The notes: generated by a model from the sequence alone, not told the origin. Shown: positions 3,525 to 29,436, numbered from the stretch's first letter. The stretch: DNA of 32,000 nt from Caldivirga maquilingensis IC-167 (GCF_000018305.1 NC_009954.1:720001-752000), one strand, 5' to 3'. Program-made: numbers and translations.

Positions 3525-4136
3525 GTGCTGGAGGTCTCGTTCATAGGTAGAAGAAGCGTGTTTAATGAGTTGAGTAGTATTGTAACGGGCCCCATTAGTG
3601 TTAAGTATGCTGACTCCAGGGTAATTAGGGCTGTGGGTAATGAGGTATGTATCCTGGATTACTACGTTGATGTTGATTGTTCAGGTAATTGCGTGAGGGT
3701 GGGTAGGTATGTTGAGCCAGTGGAGCTTATGGGTATTTTAACCAGTATTATAGTTAATATGCTTAATCATGAACTTATTAAAATGGGTATTGACTACGGT
3801 ACGGAGAGGACAGGTGTAGTCTTGATTTACGACAACACACCCTTAATCGGCAGTATATTAACCCCCGTTAAGTTAATTAAATTAATTAAATTGATTAATG
3901 GTAGATTCAGTGAAGTAGCTATAGGTGATTCACCTTCAGCGCGTAGATTCCTTGGGAGAAGTATCAATGACTTATGCTCAATAACGGATAACATACTGAT
4001 TATTAATGAGCTTGAATCCTCCAGGTTAAGGAACTGGATATCCACGAATGGTCTAATGGGTGATGTAGCTGACGCCTATGCAATAGCGTTAACTAAACCT
4101 AAGATAACCATTAAGTGCCCTAACCTTAAAGACTAA
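3525..4136 (+). CDS. Hypothetical protein; C-terminal half resembles a YqgF/RuvC-like RNase H-fold nuclease
   Basis: The track ORF starts at TTG 3507, but the in-frame GTG at 3525 sits about 26 nt after the TATA-like aaatatttaaaatt. The C-terminal half has MGIDYGTERTGVV (compare G.D.G..R.G of YqgF and GIDPG of RuvC), FSEVAIGDSP, INELESS and DVADAYAIAL (compare D.ADA.AIA of RuvC). The function is only a motif-level guess. Confidence 0.5.
   Translation: MLEVSFIGRRSVFNELSSIVTGPISVKYADSRVIRAVGNEVCILDYYVDVDCSGNCVRVGRYVEPVELMGILTSIIVNMLNHELIKMGIDYGTERTGVVLIYDNTPLIGSILTPVKLIKLIKLINGRFSEVAIGDSPSARRFLGRSINDLCSITDNILIINELESSRLRNWISTNGLMGDVADAYAIALTKPKITIKCPNLKD
3873..3899 (+). repeat. Three tandem 9-bp units (ttaattaaa ttaattaaa ttgattaat) inside the CDS
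   Basis: Read directly from the sequence. The repeat encodes LIK-LIK-LIN. Confidence 0.8.
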
Positions 4137-4291
4137 GTTTCCTGGTGTTATATGGTAAACGTGGAGATTACTGGTTTTCTTAAGGTGATTCAAGGATTAA
4201 CAATATGCGCTTAAAGTCGTCTTTCAGTGGGAAGATGCTTAAGGGGTTTAAATAGCGGTGTTTAATTAAGGGTGTCTAGGTTTTATAGATG

Positions 4292-8865: not shown

Positions 8866-9711
8866 TCGAACTCACACCCTTAACAGTTTCCCTTACCCTC
8901 AATGCTATTAATGCGGTTATTATTGATGATACTGCTGATGATATGAATATGTAGTAGAAGGATAACCTTGAGGGAACCATGTAAAGTACTGGCAAGTTAC
9001 CTAACATATCATTAATACACCATGCTTATACATATCAAGTATTGAACTTGCAAACACTGGACCGAGGGTATTACCCATTAGTCTCATGGTTGTGTTGGTT
9101 CCAGTTATGGTGGCAAGTCTCCTCTCGGATGCAGACATCATGAGTATAGTTATCCTAGTCACCATCATTCCACCAATACCGATTAACGTGACTACTAGGA
9201 TCATCATAACGTCAACCACAGTTAATGAGTAGTCCAGCGGTGTTACTGCAAGAAACAGTGAACCAAGGGCTGCAATTAATGGTGTAATTATTAATATTGG
9301 CTTAACCCTAATCCTACTTGATAATGCCACGAAGACTGACCCAATAATCAGCATTATTATGCTTATGGGGGCTGGGGTAATGCCAGTGGATAATATATCC
9401 ATGCCGAAACCCACTGGGCCGGTAGGTTAAGAGGACTGGCACTGTGTATATTTATTAAAAACCATGAGTACCCTCTTCCTACCGTACTCATCAGCTAACT
9501 TACCTATAACAGGCACTAGGACTAAGCCACCTAAGGTTTCAGCGGATAAGATCCATGAAGCCTCTGAGGCTGAGGCATTGAATTCGCTTTCAATCTTGTA
9601 TATTAAGGGGAGTACAGCCATTTCAATGTACATTGTTAAAATAAATATGAAGGCTAATATGGGTAGGTGTCTCCTTAAAACATTGGCAGTATGGCTCATA
9701 GCGGTTCTCAT
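8837..9711 (-). pseudogene. Decayed MFS transporter remnant (N-terminal half only; in-frame stop plus frameshift)
   Basis: Fragment 9427-9711 carries TM1-2 and MFS motif A (GKLADEYGRKRVL). Fragment 9001-9414 is in the same frame, separated only by TAA at 9427-9429. A third MFS-like fragment (LPVLYMVPSRLSFYYIFISSAVSSIITALIALRVRET) is open at 8840-9025 in a different frame. No C-terminal six-helix half is present, and the remnant runs into the 3' end of the M50 gene. Confidence 0.55.
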
Positions 9712-9834: not shown

Positions 9835-10001
9835 GGTTTAAAACATATGCGATACTGCATTATATAGGTGTAGGTAAGTTATCAACACTCTTAATAGTAT
9901 GGTTATTTGTCAGCATATAGTAGGTGATACTTATTTACCTGAGTAAAATTGTGTTAAATATGGCCCATTATGTTCACTTAATGGTGCATCATGGGAAAAA
10001 C

Positions 10002-10008
10002 TTATATA
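10002..10008 (+). promoter_or_regulatory. TATA box (ttatata) with purine-rich BRE-like upstream gaaaaac, for the ABC operon
   Basis: It is centred 27 nt upstream of the ATG at 10032. The same aaaacttatata string occurs upstream of the citramalate synthase gene. Confidence 0.5.
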
Positions 10009-10031
10009 GGAGAGGTAGCTGAAAATATTTT

Positions 10032-11039
10032 ATGGCTAGGAGAGACGTAATAAATACCTCAATATGGGCTGCTAAGAGTATAGCTGTTGTCTTCGCTGAG
10101 CTAGTTTTCGCAATAAGCATATCCTTCTTCCTAATACACGCAATGCCAGGTAACCCGTATCAAATAATCCTAGTTGGATTACTGCAGAAGGGTATACCTT
10201 ATGAACAGGCTAAGATAATGGCAGCTGCATTAGCCGGCTACAACCCTAACACTAACCCAATAGTTAGTTGGGCTGGTTACATGTGGAGTGTGTTCCACGG
10301 TAATTTAGGTTACTCACTAATATACAGGGCACCGGTTAGTAAAATTATAGCCACAGCCGCACCCTGGACAATACTACTGGTCGCAGTATCCTTAACACTA
10401 GCCTTTGCCACAGGTTATATACTGGGGCTTTATGCAGCATCAAAGACAGGTATAGTGGATAGTTTAATAAACGGTACATTATCCTTCTTCCAATCAATAC
10501 CAGCCTACGTCCTAGCCTTAATACTAATAATAATATTCGGTGTACTACTGAAGATAGCCCCCATAGCTGGAGCTTACTCCTCAAACGTCACACCAGGCTT
10601 CACGGCGAAATTCATACTGGATGTTATGCATCATCTAGCCCTACCCCTCTTAACCTACTACCTAGTAATATTCCCAGGCTGGGTCTTCGGTACCAGGAGC
10701 CTAGCCATAAGCATTACTAGGGAGGATTACGTGCTTGTGGCTAAGGCTAGGAGCCTACCGGAGAGGAGGATTACGCTCACCTACATTGGTAAGAACGCCC
10801 TACTACCCCAGTTAACTGCATTACTATACTCCTACGGTTTAATGTTCGGTAGCAGCATATTCATTGAATCAACCTTCGCCATACCCGGGTTAGGCTATGT
10901 CTTATCAATAGGCTCTGGTTCAAGGGACTACTTACTGACCATTGGTTCATTCCTAGTGATTATTATTGCTGTTATTTTGGGTAATTTTATTGCTGATGTT
11001 ACTTATGGTTTGATTGATCCTAGGGTGAGGGGTGTATGA
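10032..11039 (+). CDS. ABC transporter permease, DppB/OppB family
   Basis: 335 aa. It has EDYVLVAKARSLPERR...GKNALLP (EAA loop) and the C-terminal GLIDPRVR. It has six predicted TM helices and overlaps the next gene with ATGA. Confidence 0.9.
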   Translation: MARRDVINTSIWAAKSIAVVFAELVFAISISFFLIHAMPGNPYQIILVGLLQKGIPYEQAKIMAAALAGYNPNTNPIVSWAGYMWSVFHGNLGYSLIYRAPVSKIIATAAPWTILLVAVSLTLAFATGYILGLYAASKTGIVDSLINGTLSFFQSIPAYVLALILIIIFGVLLKIAPIAGAYSSNVTPGFTAKFILDVMHHLALPLLTYYLVIFPGWVFGTRSLAISITREDYVLVAKARSLPERRITLTYIGKNALLPQLTALLYSYGLMFGSSIFIESTFAIPGLGYVLSIGSGSRDYLLTIGSFLVIIIAVILGNFIADVTYGLIDPRVRGV

Positions 11040-12001
11040 TGGAGTCTGCTATTCCTCTTGGTAGGAGGGTTGTTAATAGGATTGTTGATTTGCTTCATCA
11101 ATTATACGTCTCCATAGTCATCTTCACCAGTACTGGTCAAGGTAAGGCTGGCTTCGGTTTAACAGTATTCGTTGTTGCATTAGCCATAGCAGCACCATTA
11201 TTCCCATACCCAGGACCAAAATGGAGCAACGTAGCACTACAATTCATACCACCATCAACAAAACCATCACTATGGTACATACTTGGCACTGATTACCTAG
11301 GAATACCACTGTTACTGGACATAATATGGGGACTAAGATACTTCTTGGAGATAGGTGCAATAGCCGGTGTACTGCAGGTGGCTATAGGTACCTTCCTGGG
11401 GCTCCTGGCTGGTTACCTAGGGGGCTTCACCGATAGGGCATTAAACTTCGTTTTCAACTTACTGCTCACAATACCAACCTTCGCCCTATGGTTAATACTA
11501 GCAGTCATATTTAGGTCAGGTAACCCAGTTATCCTAGGTTTCATACTAGGTATATTGAGTTGGGCTGGGTTAGCCAGATCCATTAGGGCTGCTGCCTTGA
11601 GTGCTAAGAATAAGGATTACGTTGAGGCATCAAGACTACTAGGCTTAAACTCACTATCAATAATAGCAAACGATATAATGCCTGCAATAACCCCATACAT
11701 AGTCATGAACTTCATGTTAAGTATAGTCGGAGGCTTCTATGGCGCAATGGGCCTAGCATTCCTAGGCCTAATACCCTACAGTAACATAAACTGGGGGGCA
11801 ATAATGGGTAATGCCTTCTACCAGGAGGCAGCAATATTCTCACCAACTGGAACAATACCAGTAGTAATACTGATAGTGATTCAAACAGTGATATTAATGG
11901 GTTTCGTCTACTTCGCAAACGCCTCAGTGTACATATTCGACCCCAAGAGGAGGAGGGAGGTAGAAATTAAATTAGCCAGCAAGCGTAGGGCTGTGAGGTG
12001 A
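11036..12001 (+). CDS. ABC transporter permease, DppC/OppC family
   Basis: 321 aa. It has YILGTDYLGIPLL, DYVEASRLLGL (EAA loop) and multiple TM helices. Confidence 0.9.
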   Translation: MMESAIPLGRRVVNRIVDLLHQLYVSIVIFTSTGQGKAGFGLTVFVVALAIAAPLFPYPGPKWSNVALQFIPPSTKPSLWYILGTDYLGIPLLLDIIWGLRYFLEIGAIAGVLQVAIGTFLGLLAGYLGGFTDRALNFVFNLLLTIPTFALWLILAVIFRSGNPVILGFILGILSWAGLARSIRAAALSAKNKDYVEASRLLGLNSLSIIANDIMPAITPYIVMNFMLSIVGGFYGAMGLAFLGLIPYSNINWGAIMGNAFYQEAAIFSPTGTIPVVILIVIQTVILMGFVYFANASVYIFDPKRRREVEIKLASKRRAVR

Positions 12002-12005
12002 CAGC

Positions 12006-13028
12006 ATGTCTTCGACAGTGCTCTCCGTTAAGAACCTGAACGTAACGTATAAGACAGCTACCTTCGACGTTGAGGCTGTTAAAAACGTTTCCTTCGAGTT
12101 ACATAGGCATGAGATACTGGGGATAGTTGGCGAGTCGGGTAGTGGCAAATCAACCATAGCCCTAGCACTAATGAGACTACTTCCCAATAATGCCGTAATA
12201 ACTGGTGAGGCTTCATTATACAGTAGGGATGGATCCAGAATTGACAATGTATTAACGCTCCCTGAGGAGGAGCTTAGGAGGATTAGGTATAGGTGGGGTA
12301 AGATATCCATAGTGTTCCAGGGCGCCATGAATTCGCTGAACCCATTATTAACTGTTAAGGATCACTTCATTGATACTGCCCAAGCCCATGGTATTGATAA
12401 GGAGGAGGCACTTAAAATAGCTGCTGATTTGCTCCGTTCAGTTAGGCTTGAGCCTGCTAGGGTGCTTAGGTCATACCCGCATCAATTATCAGGTGGTATG
12501 AAGCAGAGGGTTATGATTGCCTTAGCTCTAATGCTGAACCCAGACGTAATAATACTTGATGAGCCAACCACCGCCTTAGATACATTGACTCAGAGGCAGA
12601 TACTTGAGTTAATTAGGGATCTGCGTAAGGAGCGTGACGTAGGCATAATGCTTATTACTCATGATTTATCCGTCGTGGCTGATGTGGCTGATAAGGTTCT
12701 CGTTCTCTATAGGGGCTACGTAATGGAGATTGGGGATGTTTATACAGTGTACTCACGCCCATACTCGCCATACACGCTCATGTTAATAAACTCCTTCCCA
12801 GCAATAGGCAAGAGGATAATTAAGCTTAAGCCCGCTGGCATAACTGCAACAACTAATAATAGGGGTTGCCCATTCATAAATAGATGCCCATTCGCATCCA
12901 TTGAGTGCGCTGACGCGGATATGAATCTTATTGAGGTTGAGCCAGGACACTTCTCATCATGTATAAAGGCAAATCTCATACAGCAGCAGGTCGCAGGCAA
13001 GGTGATGGCCAGTGAGCAACAGCAGTAG
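12006..13028 (+). CDS. ABC transporter ATP-binding protein, DppD/OppD family
   Basis: It has Walker A GESGSGKST, the signature LSGGMKQR, Walker B IILDEPTTALD, an H-loop ITHD, and the C-terminal oligopeptide-type Cys motif GCPFINRCPF. Confidence 0.92.
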   Translation: MSSTVLSVKNLNVTYKTATFDVEAVKNVSFELHRHEILGIVGESGSGKSTIALALMRLLPNNAVITGEASLYSRDGSRIDNVLTLPEEELRRIRYRWGKISIVFQGAMNSLNPLLTVKDHFIDTAQAHGIDKEEALKIAADLLRSVRLEPARVLRSYPHQLSGGMKQRVMIALALMLNPDVIILDEPTTALDTLTQRQILELIRDLRKERDVGIMLITHDLSVVADVADKVLVLYRGYVMEIGDVYTVYSRPYSPYTLMLINSFPAIGKRIIKLKPAGITATTNNRGCPFINRCPFASIECADADMNLIEVEPGHFSSCIKANLIQQQVAGKVMASEQQQ

Positions 13029-14204
13029 CTCAGGCAGTAGCCCAAGGGGGCCTGCCCCAGTTTGCCCATATCTTCAAAGAACCCCCCAGGGCTACTTATG
13101 TAGCCTAACTCAGAAGCCTGTTAATCCACTTGGCTGGTACTGCATATTCGACTACATGAATTGCCCAATATACGTAAGCCACGCCGCTTACATGAGTGGT
13201 AGGAAGGGGCTTGAGAGGAAGTATAGTGAGGATGTTGTTATTGCTGCAGAAGACTTAACAGTAGTCTTTAAGGTTGGGAGCATGTTCAGTAAGAAGGATC
13301 TTTACGCTGTTGATCATGTTAACATAACTGTGAATAAGGGTGAGACTATGGCAGTGGTTGGTGAGTCGGGTAGTGGTAAGACCACGCTCGGTAAGACCCT
13401 AGTTGGATTATATATACACCTGCAACCGGTAGGATCTACTTCCATGGTAGGGATATTTCAACAATGACTGAGGAGGAGTATAAGGTTTACAGGCTTAAGT
13501 CACAGTACATTCACCAGGACCCATACTCAAGCCTTAACCCATATAAGACAGTGTACGATATATTGGCTGTCCCATTGAGGGCTAATAAGCTTGTGCATAG
13601 TAAGGCTGAGGAGGAGAAGCTGATTTTCGAGGCTCTTGAGAACGTTGGCCTTAACCCCAAGGCCTACATTAACAAGTACCCCTTTGAATTAAGTGGTGGT
13701 GAGAAACAGAGGGTATCCATTGCAAGGGCATTGCTCGTTAAGCCTGAGTTTGTGGTGGCTGATGAGATAGTTACGATGCTTGATGCTTCACTTAGGCTCG
13801 AGGTTCTTGATCTACTCTTAGCAGTGCAAAAGGAGATGAATTTAAGCGTACTCTTCATAACTCATGATTTAGGAATGGCCTACTACATGGCTGGTGACAC
13901 AGGTAAGGCTGCAGTAATGTACCTTGGTTCAATAATGGAGTATGGGCCAGCTAAGGAGATGCTTGAAAGCCCACTACACCCGTATACCCAAGCCTTATTA
14001 TCAGCAATACCTGAGCCTGACCCAGCTAAGTCAAGAAGTAAGAAGGTTATGAAGCTTAGAAGCCTTGATCCACCTAACCCACTTAGGGCGCCTCCTGGAT
14101 GCAAGTTCAGTGACAGGTGCCCATTTGCCATGGATAGGTGCTTTAAGGAGAGGCCTCCACTTAAGAAGGTTGGCAACGTAATGGTTGCCTGCTGGTTATA
14201 TTAA
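13012..14204 (+). pseudogene. ABC transporter ATP-binding protein, DppF/OppF family, split by a frameshift (two track ORFs, 13012-13467 and 13464-14204)
   Basis: The first ORF has Walker A GESGSGKTT and then reads LVGLYIHLQPVGSTSMVGIFQQ*. The other frame reads YTPATGRIYFHGRDISTMTEEEYKVYR...QDPYSSLNP, LSGGEKQR, ADEIVTMLD, ITHD and GCKFSDRCPF. Removing one TA from the (TA)4 run at 13409-13416 restores a continuous canonical protein. The conserved part starts near the ATG at 13192, so 13012-13191 is an unusual Cys-rich extension. Confidence 0.8.
13409..13416 (+). repeat. (TA)4 dinucleotide run at the frameshift site
   Basis: Read directly (ttatatatac). It is the only point where the two homologous frames can be joined to give GLY-TPATGRIYF. 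Confidence 0.8.
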
Positions 14205-14217
14205 AACAGTGATAATT

Positions 14218-14430
14218 ATGCATCCTGAAATAGGTAAGGCTGTCTACGGTATAATACTAAGTTTACTAGTGCTATTGGGTATATCATTCATTTACCTGAA
14301 CCCAGATGAGGTAAGCTTCTACGTAGCCTTAGTGGCACTGGTATTCCTCATAATACTGCTGGTATGGACTATCAATGATATTAGAAAACAGGCTGGTCAG
14401 GAGGGTTTAAGGTCCTCATCGGAGTCGTAG
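14218..14430 (+). CDS. Possible small two-TM membrane protein (about 70 aa)
   Basis: ATG at 14218 (the track start at 14185 overlaps the ATPase). There are two hydrophobic helices, AVYGIILSLLVLLGISFIYL and FYVALVALVFLIILLVWTI. The 3' end overlaps the convergent 14397-16331 gene by 34 nt. No homology is recognised. Confidence 0.3.
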   Translation: MHPEIGKAVYGIILSLLVLLGISFIYLNPDEVSFYVALVALVFLIILLVWTINDIRKQAGQEGLRSSSES

Positions 14431-16331
14431 TCTGTTTTTAAACTGGGTCTTTTATACTGTATTATGTTTGTTACTCCTCTATGCAGGTTCTTGGAGGATT
14501 CACTAATCATGAAGTGTAGGCTTACTGGTTCATCAATGCGCTTAACCTTTATGGAAACAGTATTCCACCCATGTCTCATTAAGGCATCTGCGTAATTCCT
14601 ACCATCACCATCGTAATTAGGCCTAAGCATATACTTCTCCTTGGATTCAACAATGGGCTCCTCATTAAACCACAGTTTAGCGTATGGTGCATTATTGGGG
14701 ATACCCAAGTGCATTATTCTTGAATCACCTGGATTATAAATGAAACCCACAGCAACCATTGAAGCACCCTTAGGTATTAAATCCTCGAGGCTGAGGTCAT
14801 AACCATCCCTGTAAACCGCAGCCCATTCACCAGCCGCAGCTTCACCAACCCACCTATCAACATCCTCATCACTGTCATTAACCTTATTAATGAACCAAAC
14901 CACCGGTGGTAATATTGTTAAGGTTATGTTAATTGACTCAAATGAGTCTAAAGCAGTGAATTGAATGATAGGGTGCTCAACGGTATTAAGCTCATTAAGG
15001 TTAATTAACCTAACCCTAAACTCAACCTCGGCCGTGGAATTAGGCTCAATGAATAACCCTCCACTCACTGGGTTTATTTGATAGGCCTTAGTGTTGATGC
15101 CGTGTATAATGTAGTTTAGGTTAATTGGACTTAACCTAATGCTCCTAATTGTGATTATTATGGGTAATTCAACATTAGGCTTAAGCACCGGGCCGATTGG
15201 GTGCTCAACGGTGGCCTCAATCCCAATGAATCTAAGCCTCCAGGTATTTGGCTTATAATTCAACCATGATTCATTAGGCTTAACCGTGAATGGGTCTATT
15301 AACCATTCAACACCACCTTCATGGTTAATCTTAACTCTATCATTATACCTAGCAAGTAATCTATACGTAACCTTAAGGATCCTATTAGCTAACTCGGTCA
15401 CAGTCCTATTAGACCTAATATTAGATACACCACCCCATGTCTCATTGGTCATAATCTCTTCGTAAACCTTAACGTAGTCTTGGGGTATGTAATCCGCGCC
15501 ATGAATAATACCCAATACAGCACCCACGGTGGCCGCGGTGCTGTCAGTGTCGTAGCCTAGGCTAATAGTCTTAGCAATAGCATCCATGAAGCTGTTACCG
15601 TAGAGTAGACCTAATACCTCAAAGCCTAGGTTAATGGGTGAGTATTGGGCTATTTTACGGTACTCAGTAGGTGCGAGCTCAATAATAATTCTCCTAGCCT
15701 CCCTTAAATCTAAGCCCTTAGCGTAGGCATTAAGGGCATTCTCAATTGCCTTATGAGTTAAGCTATTCTGGGGTATGTAGCTTAACGCATGCTTAATTAA
15801 CTTAATTAAGTCACCTTCAATGAATGCTAAAGACTCTAATACCGCATTAAATACTTCACCGTAAACAGACTCACCACCACCATGGTCAACAATAGCATCC
15901 TTAAAAGCGTACTCAGCAGCTACGTCAGGTAACCCTGGAGCTATCATTGCCCAAACCTCAGACCTAATGGGTGAACCCATGCAGTGTTTAAACCAATTAT
16001 TGAAGAAACCTGACATGGGTGGTAGTATGCCCAGCCTCAGATTCCTCTTACTCAACCCATATTCATCCCAATTATAGTGAATACAGTCGAGCCAACACTG
16101 GGCAAGATCATGCTCAGTCACATCAAGTCCCCTATCCTCAATAAGCCTAAGCCAAGCCATCTGAACCTCAAAATCATCATTAGGGTAAAGCTTAGGCTCA
16201 AGTCTAACATCAATTAAATCCTCCTGGCCAAAACCCCTCTCATAAGGGGTACCAAGACTACCACCAGCATTCTTACCTAGTAAACCACCGTAAACCTTAT
16301 TAAATAAAGCTGCCCTTGAAAGTGAAACCAT
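14397..16331 (-). CDS. ADP-ribosylglycohydrolase (ARH/DraG) family domain fused to a roughly 300-aa uncharacterised beta-rich C-terminal region
   Basis: The N-terminal 330 aa or so carries ARH blocks: GGLLGKNAGGSLGTPYE, NDDFEVQMAWL (compare TDDT) and GYDTDSTAATVGAVLGIIHG (compare DTD[ST]). The C-terminal 300 aa or so is rich in short beta-like segments with no motif I recognise. TATA-like ctttaaaa lies about 25 nt upstream of the start. Confidence 0.8.
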   Translation of the reverse strand: MVSLSRAALFNKVYGGLLGKNAGGSLGTPYERGFGQEDLIDVRLEPKLYPNDDFEVQMAWLRLIEDRGLDVTEHDLAQCWLDCIHYNWDEYGLSKRNLRLGILPPMSGFFNNWFKHCMGSPIRSEVWAMIAPGLPDVAAEYAFKDAIVDHGGGESVYGEVFNAVLESLAFIEGDLIKLIKHALSYIPQNSLTHKAIENALNAYAKGLDLREARRIIIELAPTEYRKIAQYSPINLGFEVLGLLYGNSFMDAIAKTISLGYDTDSTAATVGAVLGIIHGADYIPQDYVKVYEEIMTNETWGGVSNIRSNRTVTELANRILKVTYRLLARYNDRVKINHEGGVEWLIDPFTVKPNESWLNYKPNTWRLRFIGIEATVEHPIGPVLKPNVELPIIITIRSIRLSPINLNYIIHGINTKAYQINPVSGGLFIEPNSTAEVEFRVRLINLNELNTVEHPIIQFTALDSFESINITLTILPPVVWFINKVNDSDEDVDRWVGEAAAGEWAAVYRDGYDLSLEDLIPKGASMVAVGFIYNPGDSRIMHLGIPNNAPYAKLWFNEEPIVESKEKYMLRPNYDGDGRNYADALMRHGWNTVSIKVKRIDEPVSLHFMISESSKNLHRGVTNIIQYKRPSLKTDYDSDEDLKPS

Positions 16332-16522
16332 AGGTAATTAAGTCGCATTGGTTTTAAAGCTTTAGATAACGCATTAATTTCCTACCCAGATTCAATAAAT
16401 CCTTGAATTAATACACGAATCAATAGCTTATTTTTACTGAGTCTTAGTTAAGCTTATGATGCTTACACCAGGAATTTAATGCTTTAATTCAAGTTAATTT
16501 TAGTCGGAACCCTGATACCTCA

Positions 16523-17128
16523 TCAACTATCAGTGATGGCAGCCGTCCCCACTTCACTTAGGAATCCTTCAACTATTTTTATGAATTCCTCAGTATTATC
16601 AAGGTATGCAGGATGCCTTGCTCCCTCTATGTAGACTACCTTGAAGCCGAATCTAGTTAATAAGTCGGCATTATACCTTGGTGACACATCATCCCTACTA
16701 CCCCATATACCCAGTACTGGCTTTCTTATTTTAACAAGGTCAATCCTATTAACACCCACTGGTCCTATCACAATGGCTGCAGATGCAGGGTAACCTAAGG
16801 CTAAGTACCTTAATACTGTTTCCCCACCTATTGACGCACCTATCAGTATTGGATTTAAGATACCTAATGCATCCACAATAGCCTTTAAGTGTTCTGCGTA
16901 ATCATTCTCGTTTTCCCTCTCAAAATGGTCGCTTCTTGACCTTGGGCCATAGGGCATGTCTACGGCGTAAACCTCATACTTCTTCTCAAAGTAACTTAAG
17001 CAGCATTCATTCCAAGTATCGGCACTAAAGCTGAGGCCATGGATGAAGAGTAATGTTGATTTACCTGAACCACCTTGAAGTAATCTAACCCTCTTACCGT
17101 TAACTGTTATCCACTTCTCATTAACCAT
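16523..17128 (-). CDS. Alpha/beta-fold hydrolase
   Basis: 201 aa. It has the oxyanion HG (LLFIHGLSF), the nucleophile elbow GASIGG (G-x-S-x-G), GSRDDV (Asp) and GARHPAYLD (His). Confidence 0.8.
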   Translation of the reverse strand: MVNEKWITVNGKRVRLLQGGSGKSTLLFIHGLSFSADTWNECCLSYFEKKYEVYAVDMPYGPRSRSDHFERENENDYAEHLKAIVDALGILNPILIGASIGGETVLRYLALGYPASAAIVIGPVGVNRIDLVKIRKPVLGIWGSRDDVSPRYNADLLTRFGFKVVYIEGARHPAYLDNTEEFIKIVEGFLSEVGTAAITDS

Positions 17129-18900: not shown

Positions 18901-18921
18901 GAGTATTCAAAGTGAATACTC
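18901..18921. terminator. Perfect 9-bp hairpin (gagtattca aag tgaatactc) between convergent cimA and tpiA
   Basis: Read directly. It lies 27 nt after the cimA stop and touches the tpiA stop codon (18920-18922). Its role is uncertain because archaeal termination does not require hairpins. Confidence 0.3.
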
Positions 18922-19597
18922 ACTTACCCACAAGGGGTTTAGCTAATTCAGTTATCTTAGCCTCCCAATCCTTAGCCTTAACTATTGCACTAGCCACCAA
19001 TACACCCACTGTACCTAATTCAATTGCCTTAGCAACATCATTATAATCCTCTATACCGGCACCTGTAATAACCTTAACATCACCGTTAACCCTCTTAACT
19101 GCATTAACCGTTTCAACAACCACATCAGGCTTAGTCCTACTAACGGACTTACCTGTGCCTATTAATTCAGGAGGCTCCATGGCAACTGCCGTGGGTGCAA
19201 GGGCAGCCGCAGCGGCACTTGATAATGGGTCTGGGGAACACACCACTGTCTCAAGGTTAAGGGCCTTGGCCTTATTAACAAGCATGGCTATGTCATTTAA
19301 CAGTAACCTATGCTCACTATGATTTATAATCACACCTGAAGCCCCAGCGTCCTTAATGAACTCTAAGGGTATGTGGCCAGTCCTAGCCCCTGGATCCACT
19401 GGGTCAGCTGACTGCGCGTAAACGGGTATGTTTACGGATTCAGCAACCTGCCTTAGGTAAGTGTGCGGTGGTGCAACTATTATGGATGCACCCAGGTTAT
19501 TAGCAACCTTCTCAGCTACTTGAGCCAGCTTAACGGCACCACCCCCCAGTAACTCTGGGTAAGCCTTCATGTTTATTATGAGTACTGGAACCTTCAT
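18920..19597 (-). CDS. tpiA: Triosephosphate isomerase, archaeal short type
   Basis: 225 aa. It has INMKAY (catalytic Asn/Lys), INHSEHR (His) and [11 protein letters not shown] (Glu). The length is typical of archaeal TIM. Confidence 0.95.
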
Positions 19598-22067: not shown

Positions 22068-23183
22068 TCATAAGCCGTACATTATCCTCTTAACGTAGTC
22101 AAGTATCTTAGCTTGATCACCCGTGGACCTAATGTTCTCAAACTCATCCCTAGATAAGTATAGTGCCAGAGCCTTCTTATACAGGTTAGCGAATAATTCC
22201 TTAGATAACCTTAACCCATCCACTGGATTAAGCCTATAAGTGAATTGATCCAGGGTAAACCAGCCTGAGTAACCAGTGTCCAGTAGTGCGTATAGGAAGT
22301 CTACGAAGTGCCATGCGTCCCCAGTTCCAACAACCCTGTCCTCATCATTACTATGCCACTTAGCTGTATTAATATGCACCGTGGCCACTGAGACTCCCTG
22401 CTCCTTAGCTAAGTAGACTGTGTAGGCTGGTTCAACGGCGTACATTAATTCATGACCATAGTCTATGGTTATTCCAAACAGTTTTACACCTAAATCATTA
22501 TTTAGCCTGTTAGCGAGCATTATTGAAACATGGGATGTGGGTATGATTAAATTACCCTCCCTAGGCTCCTTGGGCTTAGCCTCAAGTCCAAAAGACCTAA
22601 TGCCCAACCTATGCGCCTCCTTACCTAGGGTAAGTAACCCCTCGTAAAGTTCCTTAATCTTCTTACCGTAATTAGACTCAAGACTGTAATCCCAGCCATC
22701 TGGACCAAGCCAAAGTGATACTGAATCCAGGCCAAGCATACGGGCTATTTCAAGGCTCTGGGTAAGGGTGCTTAAGGCCAGTTCCCTCACCTTAGGGTCA
22801 GGGTTAGTTAATGAACCTAGTTTAAACACGTGGAAACCTGAAATATCCATACCTAACCCAGCTATCTTAAGGCCTAATTCACTTGCAGTTGCCTTAACTT
22901 CATTTATCAAGTCCTCCTTAACCTTAAGATTATCGTCAAGGAATTGAGCATCTATTGGCACGACACCCTCAATCCCAGACTCCCTCACCCTCCTTAACTG
23001 ATCCACTAACCCTCTTGGTAGATTCGGGAAGTAACCACTTCTATTGAATCTATCTGAGAAATCCCCAGCAGTCCATGTACCTGCAGCGAACTTAACATTA
23101 TACTCACTGAAAAATTGATCAACAGTCTTACCCTCTATGAAACCTGAGTAGGTTGACTTTAACCTACTTATACTCATGCTCAT
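22068..23183 (-). CDS. Xylose-isomerase-fold sugar isomerase; predicted L-rhamnose(-like) aldose-ketose isomerase
   Basis: 371 aa, collinear with class I xylose isomerase blocks: FKFAAGTWT (compare FTFGLWT), LEAKPKEPREGNLIIPT (compare EPKPNEPRGD.LLPT), IDYGHELM (compare PEVGHEQM), HINTAKW (compare HIDLNGQ), NDEDRVVG (compare DQDLRFG) and FTLDQF (compare HFDFK). It is the last gene of the aldolase-AOR-rhamnulokinase operon. Confidence 0.75.
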   Translation of the reverse strand: MSMSISRLKSTYSGFIEGKTVDQFFSEYNVKFAAGTWTAGDFSDRFNRSGYFPNLPRGLVDQLRRVRESGIEGVVPIDAQFLDDNLKVKEDLINEVKATASELGLKIAGLGMDISGFHVFKLGSLTNPDPKVRELALSTLTQSLEIARMLGLDSVSLWLGPDGWDYSLESNYGKKIKELYEGLLTLGKEAHRLGIRSFGLEAKPKEPREGNLIIPTSHVSIMLANRLNNDLGVKLFGITIDYGHELMYAVEPAYTVYLAKEQGVSVATVHINTAKWHSNDEDRVVGTGDAWHFVDFLYALLDTGYSGWFTLDQFTYRLNPVDGLRLSKELFANLYKKALALYLSRDEFENIRSTGDQAKILDYVKRIMYGL

Positions 23184-23242
23184 TAACTGAATTAAGCATT
23201 AGTTTACTTTTAAGTTATAGCCATCATTAATCATTAAACAGG

Positions 23243-24751
23243 TTAGGGTAGGTTAAGTCTAGTCACGAATATTGAGTATAAATCCTCATACTTCTTCTCA
23301 TCCCTTGGTTCAAAGACCCTAATATTGAATGAATCCCTAACTATGGATCTAAGTTCCTGAATGGACTTAATAATGCCCATGCCAGCTGCCTGAATTAGAA
23401 TGTTCCCAATTGATGTTGATTCTTCAGGTCCCGCGTAGACAGGAATCCCCATTACATTGGCTGTTAATTGATTCATGAGACTGTTCCTAGAGCCACCACC
23501 AAATATGTTGATTCCCCTCAGTCTCCTACCAGTTATCTTAGTCGCTTTCTCAAATATATACCTATGCTTCAAGGCTATACTGGTTATAATAAGCCTAATT
23601 AATTCACCTAAGCTCCCTGGTTCCCTCTGCCTAGTTTCCTTAAGGTAACCGTGGATCTCATTAATCATATTAATTGGAGCCAAGAACCTTGAATCATCAA
23701 CATCTATGAAGGATTCAGGTTCCTCAGCCTCAGCCGCAAGGTTAACTAACTCATCGTAAGAGTACTCCCTTCCACTTAAATCCACTAGTATTCTCCTAAC
23801 CTCCTGCAGTATCCACATGCCCTGCATATTCCTTAAGAAGGTAATTGTACCGAAGGCACCGCCTTCATTAGTGAAGTTGCTTAACATGGCTTGTTCATTA
23901 ATTAAGGGTTCATTCAACTCCACTCCAACAAGATTCCAAGTCCCTGAACTCACGTAGCCAGTATCCTCATTAATCATTGGCCCAGCCGCAATGGCGGAGG
24001 CAGTATCATGCGTTGCAGGCGCTATCACGTTGACATCCCTACTGTCCTCACCCAACTCCTCCACAACGTCCCTCTTTAAGTAGCCTAAAACGGATCCAGC
24101 ATTAACTATTTCCTGAAGAATGTCAGTAGGTATATTGAGTTTCTCCAGTATGTCTAAACACCACCTTTTACTCTTGGCATCAAGTAATTGAGTGGTTGAT
24201 GCATTGGTGTATTCATTAACCTTAACGCCGCTTAACCAGTAATTAAGTAAGTCAGGTATCATGAGCATTGCCTTAGCAATCTTCAGTTTAGGTGAATTAA
24301 ACTTAACTAGGGCGTAGAGTTGGTAAAGGGTGTTAATGCGCATGAACTGTATACCAGTCCTACTATATATGACTTCCTTAGGTACCTTACTGAAGACTTC
24401 ACTCATTAATCCTTCAGTCATAGGATCCCTGTAGGCGTAGGGTAAGCTCACTAACTCATCATGGTCATCAAGCAGTACGAAGTCAACACCCCAAGTATCA
24501 ATACCCACTGAGGCTAATCTACCCCTATACTTCCTTAAGGCGGCTTTAATTGAATTCTTAACCTCAGCCCATAGTTGAAGCATATCCCAGTATAGGTGGT
24601 TATTAACCCTAATCATTTGGTTAGGGAACCTATATAATTCATCTATAGTTAACTTAAGGTTCTTTAAATCCAATACACCGGCAATAGCCTTACCCCCACT
24701 TGCACCTATATCTATAGCTAATATTACTATTGAATCCATGCTGCCTCTCAC
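23243..24751 (-). CDS. rhaB: Rhamnulokinase (FGGY family, RhaB type)
   Basis: It matches E. coli RhaB, as I recall it, block for block: AIDIGASGGK, YRFPN...WD, GIDTWGVDFVLLD, AYRD, GIQFMRINTLYQL, EYTNASTTQL, THDTASA, SSGTWNLVG, TNEGG and NMQGMWILQ. The GTG start overlaps the AOR stop (GTGA), and an alternative ATG lies at 24739. Confidence 0.9.
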   Translation of the reverse strand: MRGSMDSIVILAIDIGASGGKAIAGVLDLKNLKLTIDELYRFPNQMIRVNNHLYWDMLQLWAEVKNSIKAALRKYRGRLASVGIDTWGVDFVLLDDHDELVSLPYAYRDPMTEGLMSEVFSKVPKEVIYSRTGIQFMRINTLYQLYALVKFNSPKLKIAKAMLMIPDLLNYWLSGVKVNEYTNASTTQLLDAKSKRWCLDILEKLNIPTDILQEIVNAGSVLGYLKRDVVEELGEDSRDVNVIAPATHDTASAIAAGPMINEDTGYVSSGTWNLVGVELNEPLINEQAMLSNFTNEGGAFGTITFLRNMQGMWILQEVRRILVDLSGREYSYDELVNLAAEAEEPESFIDVDDSRFLAPINMINEIHGYLKETRQREPGSLGELIRLIITSIALKHRYIFEKATKITGRRLRGINIFGGGSRNSLMNQLTANVMGIPVYAGPEESTSIGNILIQAAGMGIIKSIQELRSIVRDSFNIRVFEPRDEKKYEDLYSIFVTRLNLP

Positions 24752-26622
24752 TTATTATTCATGAATCTCTCCACTATTGGCAGTATTCCCAATTCCTTAA
24801 GAGTCTCCCTAGTTGGTATACCATTCTCATCCCAGCCCATGTAATTATAGTACTCGTTAAGCATGGGTTCAAGTTCAACAACCTGCCCCTTAGCCCCACC
24901 TTCACCTAACGGCTCCTTTAGGAACCTTTCAGGTAAAGTGTCATCCTTCCTACTTATGCCGTTTATGACATTGAACATTCTCTTCAAAGTGAAAATACGC
25001 TTACCCGCCGTTAAAAGATCCTGCAGAGTCTTCTTCCTTCCCGTCACCAGCGTATACATTCCAGCTAGGTGTAATGGTGGTATACTTATGAATTTGCATA
25101 TTACTAGTGATTCAAGAACCTCGTGCCAAGTCTCCATTGTGGCAACCACACGGCCTTTACCGATGTAGGAAACCCTATCATACCTCTCGTAAATCTTCAA
25201 GTCAGTTACTCTCTCACCCTGCTCAATCCTGAAGGTTAAACCCTGAAGGTGATCAGCACCCCTATTTGATGTTGCGTATTGAAGCCCCATGCCCTTGAAA
25301 GCCCTTGGATCATGCATAGGCATTTCAGTGCCCTTAACATGCATGCAGTACTTCTCAGTGCCCCTACCTATGCTTCTTGAAGCCATGCGGCATCCCTCCC
25401 CAAGTAGTTTACCGAAGCCCTCCCGCTTCCCTATGAGCTCTATGAGTTTAAGTACTGTTTCCTTATCACCCCACTTAAGCTCCAACCCATCTGTATCCTC
25501 CTTAGTCAATAACCCCTTCTCAAAGCTCTCAATTGCCCACGCTATGGTGCCTCCTGTGGATATTGTATCTATGCCATACTTATTGCATAGGTCATTTGCC
25601 TTAACTATGTAGTAGGGGTCATCTATCATTAGCATTGAGCCCAGTGAGGCAATAGTTTCATATTCAGGACCCCTGCCTTTAACATTATTCACCTCAACGT
25701 ACTTCCAGCAGTGTATTGGGCATGCCCAACAGGCCCTATGAGCTTTCACAATATCCTTCTCCCTAAAAGCCCTACCACTTATATTAAGTATACCATCCCA
25801 CTTACCCACTGTGAAGTTCTTTATGGGCATGTCACCGTACTCGTAGAACTCCTCAACCTCACCCGCGGTACCGTATATTGAGTATAATTGTGTCGTTGGG
25901 TAGGATAATATGTAGGGTAGTAGCCTATTAATGTTGCTCCTAAGCTTCTCAGGTTCCTTAACCTTAATTTGCCCATTACCCTTAACTACAATGGCCTTAA
26001 GGTTCTTTGAACCCATGACAGCCCCCATCCCTGTTCTACCAGCTACCCTGGGTCCATCTGGAGTTATGTCTGAGGCTATTATGGCATATCTAACAAGTTT
26101 CTCACCAGCCGGCCCTATTGCAGCCACGCGTATCGCCTTATCCCCTAAATCATTCTTTAGGCTAAGGTCTGTTTCAACTGTTGTTAATCCCCAGTACTTG
26201 GATGCGTCACGGACTTCAGCTTCCCCATCATGTATGTATAAGTAAACTGGGTTACTTGACCTACCTTTAATTATAATACCATCGAAGCCGGCCTTCTTAA
26301 GCTCAACACCCCAGAAGCCTGAGGCATGTGCCTCACCCCAAGCCATGGTTAATGGTGACTTAGCCGCCACTACGTAACGGCCACTGCATTGAACCATTGT
26401 ACCAGTTAATGGTCCAGTCATGAACACTAGCACGTTATCTGGGCTGAGGGGTTCAACCCTTGGGTCAACCTCATCGAACATTATCTTTGCGGCAAGGCCA
26501 ATGCCTCCTATAAACATGTCAGCATCCTCTTCCTTCAATTCCCTAACCCTAGTTTTACCACTGCTTAAATCAACCTCAAGTATCTTCCCTATGTACCCAT
26601 ACCATTCACTCATGCAGTCCAC
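24748..26622 (-). CDS. aor: Tungsten-type aldehyde:ferredoxin oxidoreductase (AOR family)
   Basis: 624 aa. It has the N-terminus WYGYIGKILEVDLSSGK, the 4Fe-4S ligands CWACPIHC plus ICKF, and the pterin-binding GIDTISTGG and RGADHL blocks. Its start abuts the aldolase stop. Confidence 0.9.
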   Translation of the reverse strand: MDCMSEWYGYIGKILEVDLSSGKTRVRELKEEDADMFIGGIGLAAKIMFDEVDPRVEPLSPDNVLVFMTGPLTGTMVQCSGRYVVAAKSPLTMAWGEAHASGFWGVELKKAGFDGIIIKGRSSNPVYLYIHDGEAEVRDASKYWGLTTVETDLSLKNDLGDKAIRVAAIGPAGEKLVRYAIIASDITPDGPRVAGRTGMGAVMGSKNLKAIVVKGNGQIKVKEPEKLRSNINRLLPYILSYPTTQLYSIYGTAGEVEEFYEYGDMPIKNFTVGKWDGILNISGRAFREKDIVKAHRACWACPIHCWKYVEVNNVKGRGPEYETIASLGSMLMIDDPYYIVKANDLCNKYGIDTISTGGTIAWAIESFEKGLLTKEDTDGLELKWGDKETVLKLIELIGKREGFGKLLGEGCRMASRSIGRGTEKYCMHVKGTEMPMHDPRAFKGMGLQYATSNRGADHLQGLTFRIEQGERVTDLKIYERYDRVSYIGKGRVVATMETWHEVLESLVICKFISIPPLHLAGMYTLVTGRKKTLQDLLTAGKRIFTLKRMFNVINGISRKDDTLPERFLKEPLGEGGAKGQVVELEPMLNEYYNYMGWDENGIPTRETLKELGILPIVERFMNNK

Positions 26623-27291
26623 CTAACCCTGGAAGTACAACTTCATGTAGAGCTCCACATCCTTCTCAGGTATAACTGGTGGTTCCTTACCTAACACCAT
26701 GGCCACAAACTGCGCAGTGGCAACCTCCTCAAGGGTCTCCACCACAGCCTCAGCCTCAAGTAAATTAGCCCCCATACCCACTACCCCATGATTCATCAGT
26801 ATTATTGCACGCGCACCCTTAAGCGCAGCATCAGCAACAAGCTTAGCTAATTGGTCAGTCCCAGGGAAGGCAAAGGGAACGACCTCAACCTTCCTCAGGG
26901 TCATAATAGCCTCAACGGATATTGGCTTCAAGTTAACACCAGCCAACGCTAACCCTAATGTTACTGGGTTATGTGCATGAATCACTGCGTTAACATCCGG
27001 CCTAACTTTATATATGGCTGCGTGAAATGGAGTCTCTGTTGATGGCCTAAGCACGCCCTCAACCACATTACCATCTAAATCAACCTTAACTAAGTCATCA
27101 ACATTAACAGCACCCTTAAAGACACCACTGGGTGTTATCCAAAATTCACTGGCTCCAGGTACCCTGGCACTAACATTACCCCCAAGCGCAGACACTAATC
27201 CTCTCTCATACAGTGCCTTCATTACACGCGTAATCTCATTCTTAATCTCATCCTCACTAATGAGGCTAGGTCCCTCTTCCCCTGTTGACAT
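26623..27291 (-). CDS. Class II (zinc) aldolase/adducin family; predicted rhamnulose-/fuculose-1-phosphate aldolase
   Basis: 222 aa. It has PSTETPFHAAIY (catalytic Glu), VIHAHNP (Zn His-x-His) and LMNHGVVGMG (third His). It is the first gene of the operon. Confidence 0.85.
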   Translation of the reverse strand: MSTGEEGPSLISEDEIKNEITRVMKALYERGLVSALGGNVSARVPGASEFWITPSGVFKGAVNVDDLVKVDLDGNVVEGVLRPSTETPFHAAIYKVRPDVNAVIHAHNPVTLGLALAGVNLKPISVEAIMTLRKVEVVPFAFPGTDQLAKLVADAALKGARAIILMNHGVVGMGANLLEAEAVVETLEEVATAQFVAMVLGKEPPVIPEKDVELYMKLYFQG

Positions 27292-27313: not shown

Positions 27314-27320
27314 TATATAA
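27314..27320 (-). promoter_or_regulatory. TATA box for the aldolase-AOR-kinase-isomerase operon (minus strand gcttatatac)
   Basis: It is centred 26 nt upstream of the ATG whose first base is 27291. Confidence 0.5.
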
Positions 27321-27476: not shown

Positions 27477-27565
27477 GCCGGGGTGGCCGAGCCTGGTTTA
27501 AGGCGTGGGCCTGCTAAGCCCATCCCCGCAAGGGGGCCCGGGTTCAAATCCCGGCCCCGGCGCCA
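27477..27565 (+). tRNA. tRNA-Ser (anticodon GCU), long variable arm, genomically encoded CCA, no intron
   Basis: The cloverleaf reads as follows: acceptor GCCGGGG/CCCCGGC, anticodon stem tgggc/gccca with loop cTGCTaa, variable arm ccccgcaaggggg, T arm CCGGG-TTCAAAT-CCCGG, discriminator G, then CCA. Confidence 0.95.
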
Positions 27566-28044: not shown

Positions 28045-29436
28045 GTGAAGTCTACTCATTATCCCAGTAGAGCAGCATATACCGTGGTCTCTGCCTTGGG
28101 GTATATGTTGGATGGATATGACCTAAGCGTTATCAGCGTTTTCACTTTCTCCTTACTCAAGTTTGGGTTCTTCAAGTATAATAGTCTAGAGCTGGGCTTT
28201 GTTAGTGGTGCGGCATTGCTAGGGGCAATGTTCGGTGCATTGATTTTTGGCCACTTCTCCGATAGACTCGGTAGGAGGTATCTATATACCTTTGATCTCT
28301 TATTCTTCGTAGTATTTGCAGCGCTCAGCGCCTTCTCCACTAACATTATTCAAATGATAATATACAGGTTCTTTGTGGGTTGGGGTGTAGGGGCTGATTA
28401 CGCCCTGAGCCCAGTTTACGCAACTGAAATGTATCCAACTAACAAGAGAGGAATGGGTTATGGTTGGGTGTGGACGTTCTGGAGCGTGGGTGCCTTCATA
28501 GCATTCATATTAGGCTATGTGTTTTACTTAGTTGATCCAGTATACGGATGGAGGTGGGCCTTGGGCATAGGTGCAATAATAGCGCTGGCCACGATAATAG
28601 TGAGGTCACTTATGCCGGAGTCTAGCCGTTGGAAGGTGGCAGTTAAGCAGGATACGAATGCCGTGGAAGAGGCCCGTCGGTTATCTCAAGTCACCGGTAT
28701 GAGTGATCAAGACATAAGTAAGCTAGTGGAGGTTGAAGCTAAGAAGCTAGCTCATGTGAAGCCAGGTTCGTTTTTGGAATTATTTAAGGGTGATTACGCG
28801 AAGAGGACGGCAATTGTCTGGACTCAATGGATACTATATGACATTGGGTCGTATGGTTTTGGCCTGTATGCCCCATCCATAATATCGATGCTTGGCTTCA
28901 AGGGCGCATCCTCCATGTTATTATCAGCACTACTCTACATACCGGGGGCCCTGGGTGCACTGGGTGCTGCATTCCTCAATGATAGGTGGGGGAGAAGGAT
29001 TCTTCAATTACTTGGTTTTGGTTTCTCCACGCTTGGAATGGTATTAGTAGCCTTAGGGGCATTAATAGGTGGGCTTATGGCCATGGTTATTGGTGTCATT
29101 GGATTAGTGTTGTGGTATGGCTTCGGTAATTTGGGTCCGGGAAACACCATGGGTCTGTATGCTATAGAGCTTTTCCCAACTAAGCTTAGGTCAACATCGA
29201 TGGGTAGTGCCACGGCCATAACCAGATTCGTATCGTTCTTGAGTGCCTTCGAGTTCCCATACATAGCCCTAGTCTTCGGTAAATTATCATTCTTCGAGTT
29301 CCTGGCAGCGATTACCTTCGTGGCCTTCATATTTACAATTTTCTTCACACCGGAGACTAAGGGAATATCGCTGGAAGACATAGCCACAGCCAAGTACAAG
29401 GGCCCTGGACTACATCCCAGACTAGAGGTGGAGTAG
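28045..29436 (+). CDS. MFS transporter, sugar-porter family
   Basis: 463 aa with 12 predicted TM helices. It has GHFSDRLGRRYLY (motif A), R...G.G.G, PESSRWK (compare PESPRW), NDRWGRR and TPETKGISLEDI (compare PETKG). It has a GTG start with a TATA-like ttaaata about 26 nt upstream. Confidence 0.85.
   Translation: MKSTHYPSRAAYTVVSALGYMLDGYDLSVISVFTFSLLKFGFFKYNSLELGFVSGAALLGAMFGALIFGHFSDRLGRRYLYTFDLLFFVVFAALSAFSTNIIQMIIYRFFVGWGVGADYALSPVYATEMYPTNKRGMGYGWVWTFWSVGAFIAFILGYVFYLVDPVYGWRWALGIGAIIALATIIVRSLMPESSRWKVAVKQDTNAVEEARRLSQVTGMSDQDISKLVEVEAKKLAHVKPGSFLELFKGDYAKRTAIVWTQWILYDIGSYGFGLYAPSIISMLGFKGASSMLLSALLYIPGALGALGAAFLNDRWGRRILQLLGFGFSTLGMVLVALGALIGGLMAMVIGVIGLVLWYGFGNLGPGNTMGLYAIELFPTKLRSTSMGSATAITRFVSFLSAFEFPYIALVFGKLSFFEFLAAITFVAFIFTIFFTPETKGISLEDIATAKYKGPGLHPRLEVE

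Follow-up and report, generated by a model that had tools for sequence, protein, structure and literature searches.

A candidate aldolase-oxidoreductase module for L-lactaldehyde in Caldivirga maquilingensis and related archaea

In a 32,000-nucleotide stretch of the Caldivirga maquilingensis IC-167 genome (GCF_000018305.1 NC_009954.1:720001-752000), referred to here as the window, a gene for an aldehyde:ferredoxin oxidoreductase of the AOR family directly follows a gene for a class II aldolase. The two genes form a pair that recurs across several archaeal lineages, and it is very likely that the AOR serves the aldehyde product of the aldolase, whichever aldehyde that may be. We favor, with less assurance, L-lactaldehyde released by the aldolase in a deoxy-sugar route as the substrate. 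The full proposal is offered tentatively: the pair would be a previously undescribed conserved module of the Thermoproteota, with L-lactaldehyde as its chief substrate, and would belong to a phosphorylative, ferredoxin-linked archaeal pathway for deoxy-sugars. We infer the identity of the sugar, the identity of the aldehyde and the co-transcription of the genes.

The aldolase-AOR pair and its conservation

Searches from the AOR found 28 distinct archaeal loci (58-94% identity), and in all 28 the aldolase gene is directly upstream. In each of 22 archaeal genome loci whose AOR is 60-94% identical, drawn from Caldivirga, Thermoproteaceae, Desulfurococcales, Ignisphaera and a metagenome-assembled genome (MAG) of Sulfolobales, the aldolase is likewise immediately upstream. 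Context look-ups extended to 58% identity, and included Bathyarchaeota, Thermofilum, Ignisphaera and metagenome lineages; Aldolase_II stands directly before the AOR in 9 of 9, and the remaining neighbors are unrelated. Four bacterial AORs (32-43% identity) have no such aldolase. The search from the aldolase yielded 57 distinct loci whose aldolase shares at least 55% identity with that of the window, one of them on a contig too short to judge. The AOR begins within a few tens of bases past the aldolase stop in 54 of the 56 loci with enough sequence, and is absent downstream in two (L070, and L071 with its aldolase at 57% identity). Overall, the pair is found in Caldivirga, Thermofilum, Ignisphaera, Desulfurococcales, Sulfolobales and Bathyarchaeia.

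The pairwise distances of the aldolases and of the AORs correlate (r 0.85; 0 of 999 permutations in a Mantel test, 44 complete pairs and the window), which shows co-inheritance, although some correlation is expected of any two vertically inherited genes. The pair can also decay as a unit. In a Caldivirga-like decayed copy (L061 6001..7500), the aldolase is frameshifted, residues 6-147 of the AOR are fused directly to residues 187-370 of the isomerase, half of which is thus missing, and the kinase gene is gone. In a second decayed copy (L073 4349..5621), the AOR keeps only residues 5-104 and 518-620, and the aldolase again carries a frameshift. Both partners are damaged in both copies, with a small chance that the frameshifts are assembly errors. 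Adjacency in both searches, correlated distances and joint decay lend strong support to the proposal, made earlier in a sequence-only reading of the window, that the AOR acts on the aldehyde of its neighbor.

That reading also described the AOR as embedded in a sugar operon. Embedding as a rare accident did not survive, given that the module of the two genes is widespread and that only some 15 distinct loci have kinase and isomerase genes joined to it. The order and orientation of the kinase relative to the pair vary among AOR subclades. The conserved unit is the aldolase followed by the AOR, and not the whole operon. The closest loci, in Caldivirga sp. UBA161 (AOR 94%, aldolase 99%), other Caldivirga genomes and hot-spring metagenome contigs, have the same four genes as the window, followed by the same gene for ribosomal protein S5.

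The AOR was predicted to be full-length with the motifs CWACPIHC, ICKF, GIDTISTGG and RGADHL, and this was upheld. AFOR_N (PF02730) covers residues 12-215 (E 2.5e-79) and AFOR_C (PF01314) residues 240-613 (E 3.8e-139) by Pfam, four of four motifs are in the translation, and matches in the PDB span the full length (E 1e-127 to 1e-136), well outside what chance would give. Alignment over the full length with the AOR of Pyrococcus furiosus (1aor, 39% identity) equates CWACPIHC and ICKF with CYACPIGC and LCLF, which hold the [4Fe-4S] ligands Cys288, Cys291, Cys295 and Cys494, and equates GIDTISTGG with GLDTISTGG, the pterin block around Asp338. RGADH aligns with RGGCH, which holds His448, and Glu313 is kept too (GPEYE); Asp489 is replaced conservatively by Glu. 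The Cys ligands are kept in the top 45 homologues inspected, where the regular expression failed for one sequence. Judged from the sequence, membership of the AOR family and an intact predicted active site can be taken as established. The metal is presumably tungsten and the acceptor presumably ferredoxin, and the reaction presumably runs in the direction of oxidation.

The closest solved relatives by bit score are 9mqx (459) and 1aor (427), followed by the Aromatoleum AOR (372) and Haloferax WOR83 (343). Scores to other subfamilies in the PDB are lower (FOR 322, WOR5 273, BamB 244), and the score to the GAPOR model, 48 bits, is far short of its cut-off (1300), such that membership of GAPOR, FOR, WOR5 and BamB was ruled out on score. 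By its sequence the protein sits in the AOR sensu stricto group, as a similarity ranking rather than a phylogeny; the ranking took in AOR, FOR, WOR5, BamB and GAPOR. The cluster has no Fer4 or FAD-subunit gene of the multi-subunit AorABC type, the neighbors being the aldolase and a kinase, and the enzyme is probably of the simple type that lacks an extra AorA or AorC subunit. It resembles 1aor and the solved 9mqx and 9g7j in two-domain architecture, length, the CxxCxxxC...C ligands, the pterin blocks and Glu313/His448. It differs from 1aor in its modest identity and in belonging to a clade (at least 56% identical to the window protein) with an invariant upstream class II aldolase gene. No aldolase partner for a characterized AOR was reported in the literature searched.

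AORs are typically promiscuous, as are the characterized members of the AOR sensu stricto group, and the AOR-family enzyme WOR1 acts on many aldehydes (PMC11725836). This would fit a broad-specificity scavenger like the P. furiosus AOR, acting on aldehydes derived from amino acids and placed next to an aldolase with no specific meaning. Such a role is nonetheless very improbable. Order and orientation are the same in 54 of 56 loci, even though the AORs are only 56-60% identical across lineages and the other neighbors are unrelated, and aldolase and AOR decay together. Other AOR paralogues are present in the same genomes (L027 has a second AOR), so scavenging need not rest on this clade.

In the window, the pair is part of a four-gene cluster on the minus strand, running from 27291 to 22068 in the order aldolase, AOR, kinase and, after a 59-nt gap, isomerase:

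27314..27320, minus strand: TATA-like TTATATA, -29 to -23 from the aldolase ATG, read off the sequence
26623..27291, minus strand: class II (Zn) aldolase, 222 aa, the first gene in the cluster (PF00596, E 6.6e-49)
24748..26622, minus strand: AOR-family aldehyde:ferredoxin oxidoreductase (tungstopterin, [4Fe-4S]), 624 aa from GTG, with AFOR_N and AFOR_C
23243..24751, minus strand: FGGY-family ketose kinase of the RhaB or Streptococcus pneumoniae FucK type, with FGGY_N and FGGY_C
23208..23213, minus strand: TATA-like TTAAAA, -30 to -25 from the isomerase ATG, read off the sequence
22068..23183, minus strand: xylose-isomerase-like TIM-barrel protein, 371 aa, candidate aldose-ketose isomerase for a deoxy-sugar (PF01261, E 3e-22)

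The aldolase stop codon TAG (26625..26623) is followed directly by GTG at 26622, a possible AOR start with no spacer, and the TGA stop of the AOR shares bases with a kinase GTG (GTGA; -4 nt). These GTG starts are the less likely ones. ATG starts are preferred because they match the N-termini of orthologues: MxEW[YF]GY favors ATG 26613 for the AOR (621 aa), and MDS[IV]V.LAID favors ATG 24739 for the kinase (498 aa). The spacers are then 9 nt between aldolase and AOR and 8 nt between AOR and kinase, each with a Shine-Dalgarno-like motif (GGTGG or GAGG). Therefore, of the translational coupling proposed for both sides of the AOR, the tight junctions stand, and the three genes are closely packed but probably do not overlap. 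Since it has the usual geometry of a crenarchaeal promoter, TTATATA suggests a promoter for a leaderless aldolase-AOR-kinase transcript. TTAAAA, which falls within the gap between kinase and isomerase, may be a separate promoter for the isomerase. Three antisense open reading frames (ORFs) inside the AOR gene (24863..25168, 25289..25612 and 25931..26245, all plus strand) were treated as spurious. An Rfam scan of the window matched a tRNA-Ser alone and no cofactor riboswitch.

A proposed deoxy-sugar route and its likely aldehyde

In the proposed route, a free 6-deoxy-hexose (L-rhamnose or L-fucose) would be converted to the ketose by the TIM-barrel isomerase, and the RhaB/FucK-like kinase would phosphorylate the ketose at C1. 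The Zn aldolase would cleave the resulting ketose-1-phosphate to dihydroxyacetone phosphate (DHAP) and L-lactaldehyde, and the AOR would oxidize the latter to L-lactate, with two electrons passing via the [4Fe-4S] cluster to give 2 reduced ferredoxin. The AOR would stand in for the bacterial NAD-dependent AldA or RhaW, or for the propanediol-forming FucO, and in some lineages the lactate would go on to pyruvate. The predicted aldehyde is independent of the sugar, because the routes for rhamnose and fucose both give DHAP and L-lactaldehyde (PMC3870299). By analogy to a fused bacterial enzyme, RhaEW, the aldolase and the AOR might associate physically and channel the toxic aldehyde.

The deoxy-sugar reading is favored because the kinase orthologue in L008, L009 and L033, which scores 480 bits to the rhamnulokinase model TIGR02627, pairs with a FucI-type isomerase. 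The gene for that isomerase, which scores 145 bits where the cut-off is 775, is oriented divergently from the aldolase gene, and another is 4.4 kb away in Ignisphaera L012. An isomerase of the window type adjoins the kinase in Caldivirga, the Sulfolobales MAG locus L021, L047 and L048, such that the isomerases of the pair loci are of two unrelated types. Lactate is the predicted product because of the lactate enzymes in relatives. A split LutB/LdhH-like L-lactate dehydrogenase directly follows the AOR in L019 and L035, where a mutarotase and a sugar-binding protein are encoded ahead of the kinases. A LarA-like racemase is beside a kinase in Ignisphaera L086 (424 bits to lactate racemase, cut-off 460), and a GlcD/CCG hydroxy-acid oxidase is encoded at Thermofilum L029 together with phosphotransferase system (PTS) EIIC genes and a XylB-like FGGY kinase. 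The L086 racemase gene is part of a sugar island (10001..16652) on the same contig, 10.7 kb from the pair. The island encodes a RhaB-like kinase, a second FGGY kinase, the LarA-like 2-hydroxyacid racemase, a XylB-like kinase, a fructose-6-phosphate-aldolase/TalC-like protein and a sugar transporter of the ATP-binding cassette (ABC) type.

Genes for cofactor synthesis, MoaD-like and MoeA, adjoin the pair in many loci, which fits an enzyme with a pterin cofactor. In many loci a short gene of the MoaD/ThiS type is oriented divergently from the aldolase. In one Ignisphaera genome two MoeA genes adjoin the pair, one with extra PBP_like and SBP_bac_11 domains by Pfam. These cofactor genes were noted at L028 12046..15294, L034 8334..8705 and many Ignisphaera loci. 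Neither MoaD/ThiS-like nor MoeA genes are present in the window.

The kinase had been called a rhamnulokinase in the sequence-only reading. The likeness to RhaB is real, with 478.7 bits to TIGR02627 and 98 bits to XylB, but the label is only approximate, given that the cut-off is 527.95 and that the best solved relative is the S. pneumoniae L-fuculokinase FucK (4c23, 324 bits) ahead of Escherichia coli RhaB (2cgj, 294 bits). The isomerase scores weakly to xylA_Arthro (74 bits, cut-off 447) and RhaI_grampos (42 bits, cut-off 531), and its top PDB match is 3ktc, an uncharacterized 'xylose isomerase'. With the kinase and isomerase below all curated cut-offs, the sugar could be rhamnose or fucose.

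Several observations weigh against L-lactaldehyde as the substrate or against the deoxy-sugar pathway. The kinase falls short of the rhamnulokinase cut-off, and the isomerase is of a xylose-isomerase-like family with no assigned function. The pair stands alone, with no adjoining kinase or isomerase, in most loci, and one kinase-isomerase locus (L087) has no aldolase-AOR pair within 10 kb. No lactate-utilization gene was seen in the window, and a sugar porter gene near the cluster is not conserved even within Caldivirga. The promiscuity of AORs means that lactaldehyde could be the substrate in the cell and still not be preferred kinetically. The PF00596 aldolase reaches the cut-off of no NCBIfam equivalog, and its best scores, at about 119 bits each, are to FucA_Meth, OtnC (3-oxo-tetronate-4-phosphate decarboxylase) and PRK06557 (epimerase subfamily). 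In addition, FucA Tyr113 is replaced by Val in 47 of 51 AOR-linked aldolases and Phe131 by Pro in 51 of 51. The claim that the AOR oxidizes L-lactaldehyde is thus supported in part, by the FucI-type, LutB/LdhH and LarA context in relatives, and is weakened by an aldolase that lacks Tyr113 and Phe131.

The residue numbers are those of E. coli FucA, in the sequence as we take it to be, and S. pneumoniae FucA was checked and does carry the HYM motif. Equivalents of His92, His94, His155, Glu73, Asn29, Gly44 and Ser71, which comprise ligands to Zn and phosphate and the catalytic Glu, are invariant among the 51 clade members, and the motif P[IV][ST]VEA[VI]M replaces xHYM of FucA. Glu may replace Tyr in RhaD and AraD, and by analogy a conserved Glu two residues past the Val might substitute for Tyr113. 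The best FucA equivalog model gives 119 bits against a cut-off of 250, below the level that defines FucA proper. In the PDB, the aldolase scores 105 bits to S. pneumoniae FucA, 93 to DrdA (6btd), 81 to 6vop and 66 to E. coli FucA. By these sequence measures it is a distinct subclade rather than canonical FucA. Because this subclade lacks Tyr113 and Phe131, glycolaldehyde, glyceraldehyde or acetaldehyde could also be its product.

An AOR coupled to the aldolase in the same way could then oxidize a different aldehyde, such as glycolaldehyde from D-ribulose-1-phosphate or L-xylulose-1-phosphate, or glyceraldehyde from a ketohexose-1-phosphate, or the module could be generic. One example source of glycolaldehyde would be D-arabinose handled by FucI-type enzymes; FucI, FucK and FucA of E. 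coli process D-arabinose too, and an AOR-type enzyme of Thermoproteus acts on glyceraldehyde in the non-phosphorylative Entner-Doudoroff branch. The two absent residues shape the aldehyde pocket of FucA, and the score to a model of haloarchaeal ribulose-1-phosphate aldolase (108 bits) nearly equals those to FucA models. Alongside the pair, L006, L009, L033, L035 and Thermofilum L029 encode a second FGGY kinase, which is XylB-like, the last with PTS EIIC genes, no RhaB-like kinase and a GlcD/GlcF-like oxidase that could use glycolate. (Flags for a second FGGY kinase, FGGY2, on Caldivirga loci were discarded, as they are second-kinase queries cross-matching the RhaB-like kinase and mark no extra genes.) Against this, the sole kinase in the window is strongly RhaB/FucK-like (479 bits, XylB 98), and L-lactate-specific LutB/LdhH-like genes and the LarA-like racemase are linked to the pair in relatives. 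Moreover, the aldolase is 70-80% identical between kinase-linked and stand-alone loci, suggesting a single specificity. A different aldehyde of this kind, or a generic module, is regarded as unlikely.

The similarity to DrdA and 6vop, which is near that to FucA, also brings in salvage of by-products of S-adenosylmethionine, the DHAP shunt (PMC10986504). In this case the pair would have a housekeeping role, in which 5-deoxyribulose-1-phosphate or methylthioribulose-1-phosphate is cleaved and the AOR oxidizes acetaldehyde or 2-(methylthio)acetaldehyde, and the link to sugar kinases in Caldivirga would be secondary. The DHAP-shunt aldolases (DrdA, 6btd; Ald2), to which the window aldolase scores 93 and 81 bits, are FucA-like class II enzymes that yield DHAP and a small aldehyde (PMC10986504). 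The presence of the pair as a stand-alone unit in many genomes of widely differing lifestyle is in keeping with this role, as is the L071 relative of the aldolase, which has no AOR and is followed by a gene for S-adenosylhomocysteine hydrolase. However, the DHAP-shunt aldolases are encoded with MtnK or MtnP and with MtnA-type genes, and no MtnA-type isomerase, MtnK, MtnP or nucleosidase was found in the window or in nine Pfam-annotated contexts of the pair. The catabolic genes attached to the pair are always for sugar kinases, isomerases, transporters or lactate enzymes, and the module decays as a dispensable unit (L061, L073), which is unexpected of a detoxifying housekeeping role. We consider DHAP-shunt salvage improbable for the pair. 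The L071 locus (3222..5461), in which the hydrolase gene begins 315 nt after the distant aldolase relative (57% identity), hints that adjoining aldolase subclades might serve salvage related to S-adenosylmethionine.

The occurrence of the pair by itself in many genomes could also be read as biosynthesis, in which the AOR would use reduced ferredoxin to reduce an acid, for example lactate, and a deoxy-ketose phosphate would be built by the aldolase from the resulting aldehyde and DHAP. Given donors of low potential, AORs can reduce acids; the reaction of class II aldolases is reversible; and methanogen FucA and lactaldehyde metabolism are tied to F420 biosynthesis (cited in PMC8498797). The attached genes are nevertheless catabolic, encoding kinases for free ketoses, uptake systems and lactate dehydrogenase; acid reduction is thermodynamically unfavorable; and to our knowledge no consumer of a deoxy-ketose-1-phosphate is encoded nearby. 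A biosynthetic role is hardly to be expected.

Other features of the window

A triosephosphate isomerase gene (18920..19597, minus strand) is 2.5 kb from the cluster, with ribosomal protein genes in between. The enzyme would take the DHAP product, and its nearness may be coincidental. On the other side, a tRNA-Ser(GCT) gene (27477..27565, plus strand) separates the aldolase promoter from the gene for a sugar porter of the major facilitator superfamily (MFS; 28045..29436, plus strand). The porter was rejected as part of the module, given the intervening tRNA gene and its absence from the same place in Caldivirga sp. UBA161. Past the tRNA in UBA161 (L001 4900..7340) are a nucleotidyltransferase-like ORF and a gene of the DapA/KDG-aldolase family, with no porter, and the region beside the tRNA-Ser is strain-variable.

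Elsewhere, an Opp/Dpp-type transporter cluster (10032..14204) includes an OppF-like ABC ATPase split over 13012..13467 and 13464..14204 (plus strand), with Walker A in the first ORF and the rest, with oligo_HPY, in the second; the split ORFs are a frameshifted pseudogene or a sequencing error. An ORF of 137 aa (9001..9414, minus strand) covers no more of the MFS_1 profile than its C-terminal third and is probably a truncated transporter gene. The product of 14397..16331 (minus strand, 644 aa) has an N-terminal ADP-ribosylglycohydrolase domain (residues 15-285), with about 350 C-terminal residues that have no match.

Relation to known pathways and significance

The proposed route is similar to the bacterial RhaA/RhaI-RhaB-RhaD and FucI-FucK-FucA pathways, in which an isomerase, a ketose-1-kinase and a class II aldolase are followed by disposal of L-lactaldehyde (PMC3870299). 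It differs in that the AldA and FucO routes are NAD(H)-linked, whereas the lactaldehyde step here would use ferredoxin and tungstopterin, and in that the aldolase is of a subclade with neither Tyr113 nor Phe131 and the isomerase is xylose-isomerase-like. The finding is a non-orthologous replacement within a known type of pathway, by a known enzyme family.

The closest parallel is RhaEW, a fusion of L-rhamnulose-1-phosphate aldolase with L-lactaldehyde dehydrogenase of Chloroflexi, Bacilli and others; lld genes (lldEFG) also join the Rha regulons of some genomes (PMC3870299). In both systems an aldolase is tightly coupled to an oxidizer of lactaldehyde, a predicted one in the archaea, and the counterpart of lldEFG is seen in L035, where LutB/LdhH-like genes come after the AOR. 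However, RhaW is NAD-dependent and fused to the aldolase, whereas the archaeal pair consists of separate genes and its oxidizer is an unrelated metalloenzyme of the AOR family.

Oxidation of lactaldehyde by an AOR-family tungstoenzyme has a precedent in WOR1 of Eubacterium limosum, which oxidizes lactaldehyde and other short aldehydes in vitro and, per a figure legend, is among three electron-bifurcating enzymes that use NAD+/NADH and ferredoxin (PMC11725836). WOR1 was assigned to detoxification during growth on lactate, with lactaldehyde undetected in cells (PMC11725836). Unlike the archaeal enzyme, it has no aldolase partner. Detoxification of lactaldehyde by unlinked AORs has been raised as a speculation in a MAG paper (PMC9324843). 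For archaeal rhamnose routes, the literature search found the Haloferax pathway alone, which is a non-phosphorylative diketo-hydrolase pathway (PMC10838023). Neither a module of class II aldolase and AOR nor an archaeal cluster for rhamnose or fucose that includes an AOR was described in the literature searched.

For most AOR-family tungstoenzymes no physiological substrate has been assigned, since they accept many aldehydes in vitro and seldom have informative gene neighbors. Adjacency across multiple lineages lets one archaeal clade of AORs be given a specific and testable substrate. The aldolase subclade (Val and Pro for Tyr113 and Phe131) may also attract interest in biocatalysis, as a thermostable DHAP aldolase whose aldehyde pocket differs. 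If the assignment is true, the whole clade would gain a defined substrate, the aldehyde half of ketose-1-phosphate cleavage, and the phosphorylative pathway for rhamnose and fucose would extend to the Archaea. For strict anaerobes, the lactaldehyde half of a deoxy-sugar would be a source of reduced ferredoxin and of a second pyruvate. Rather than consume NAD+ or excrete propanediol, such an anaerobe would oxidize this half fully, by way of lactate, to pyruvate.

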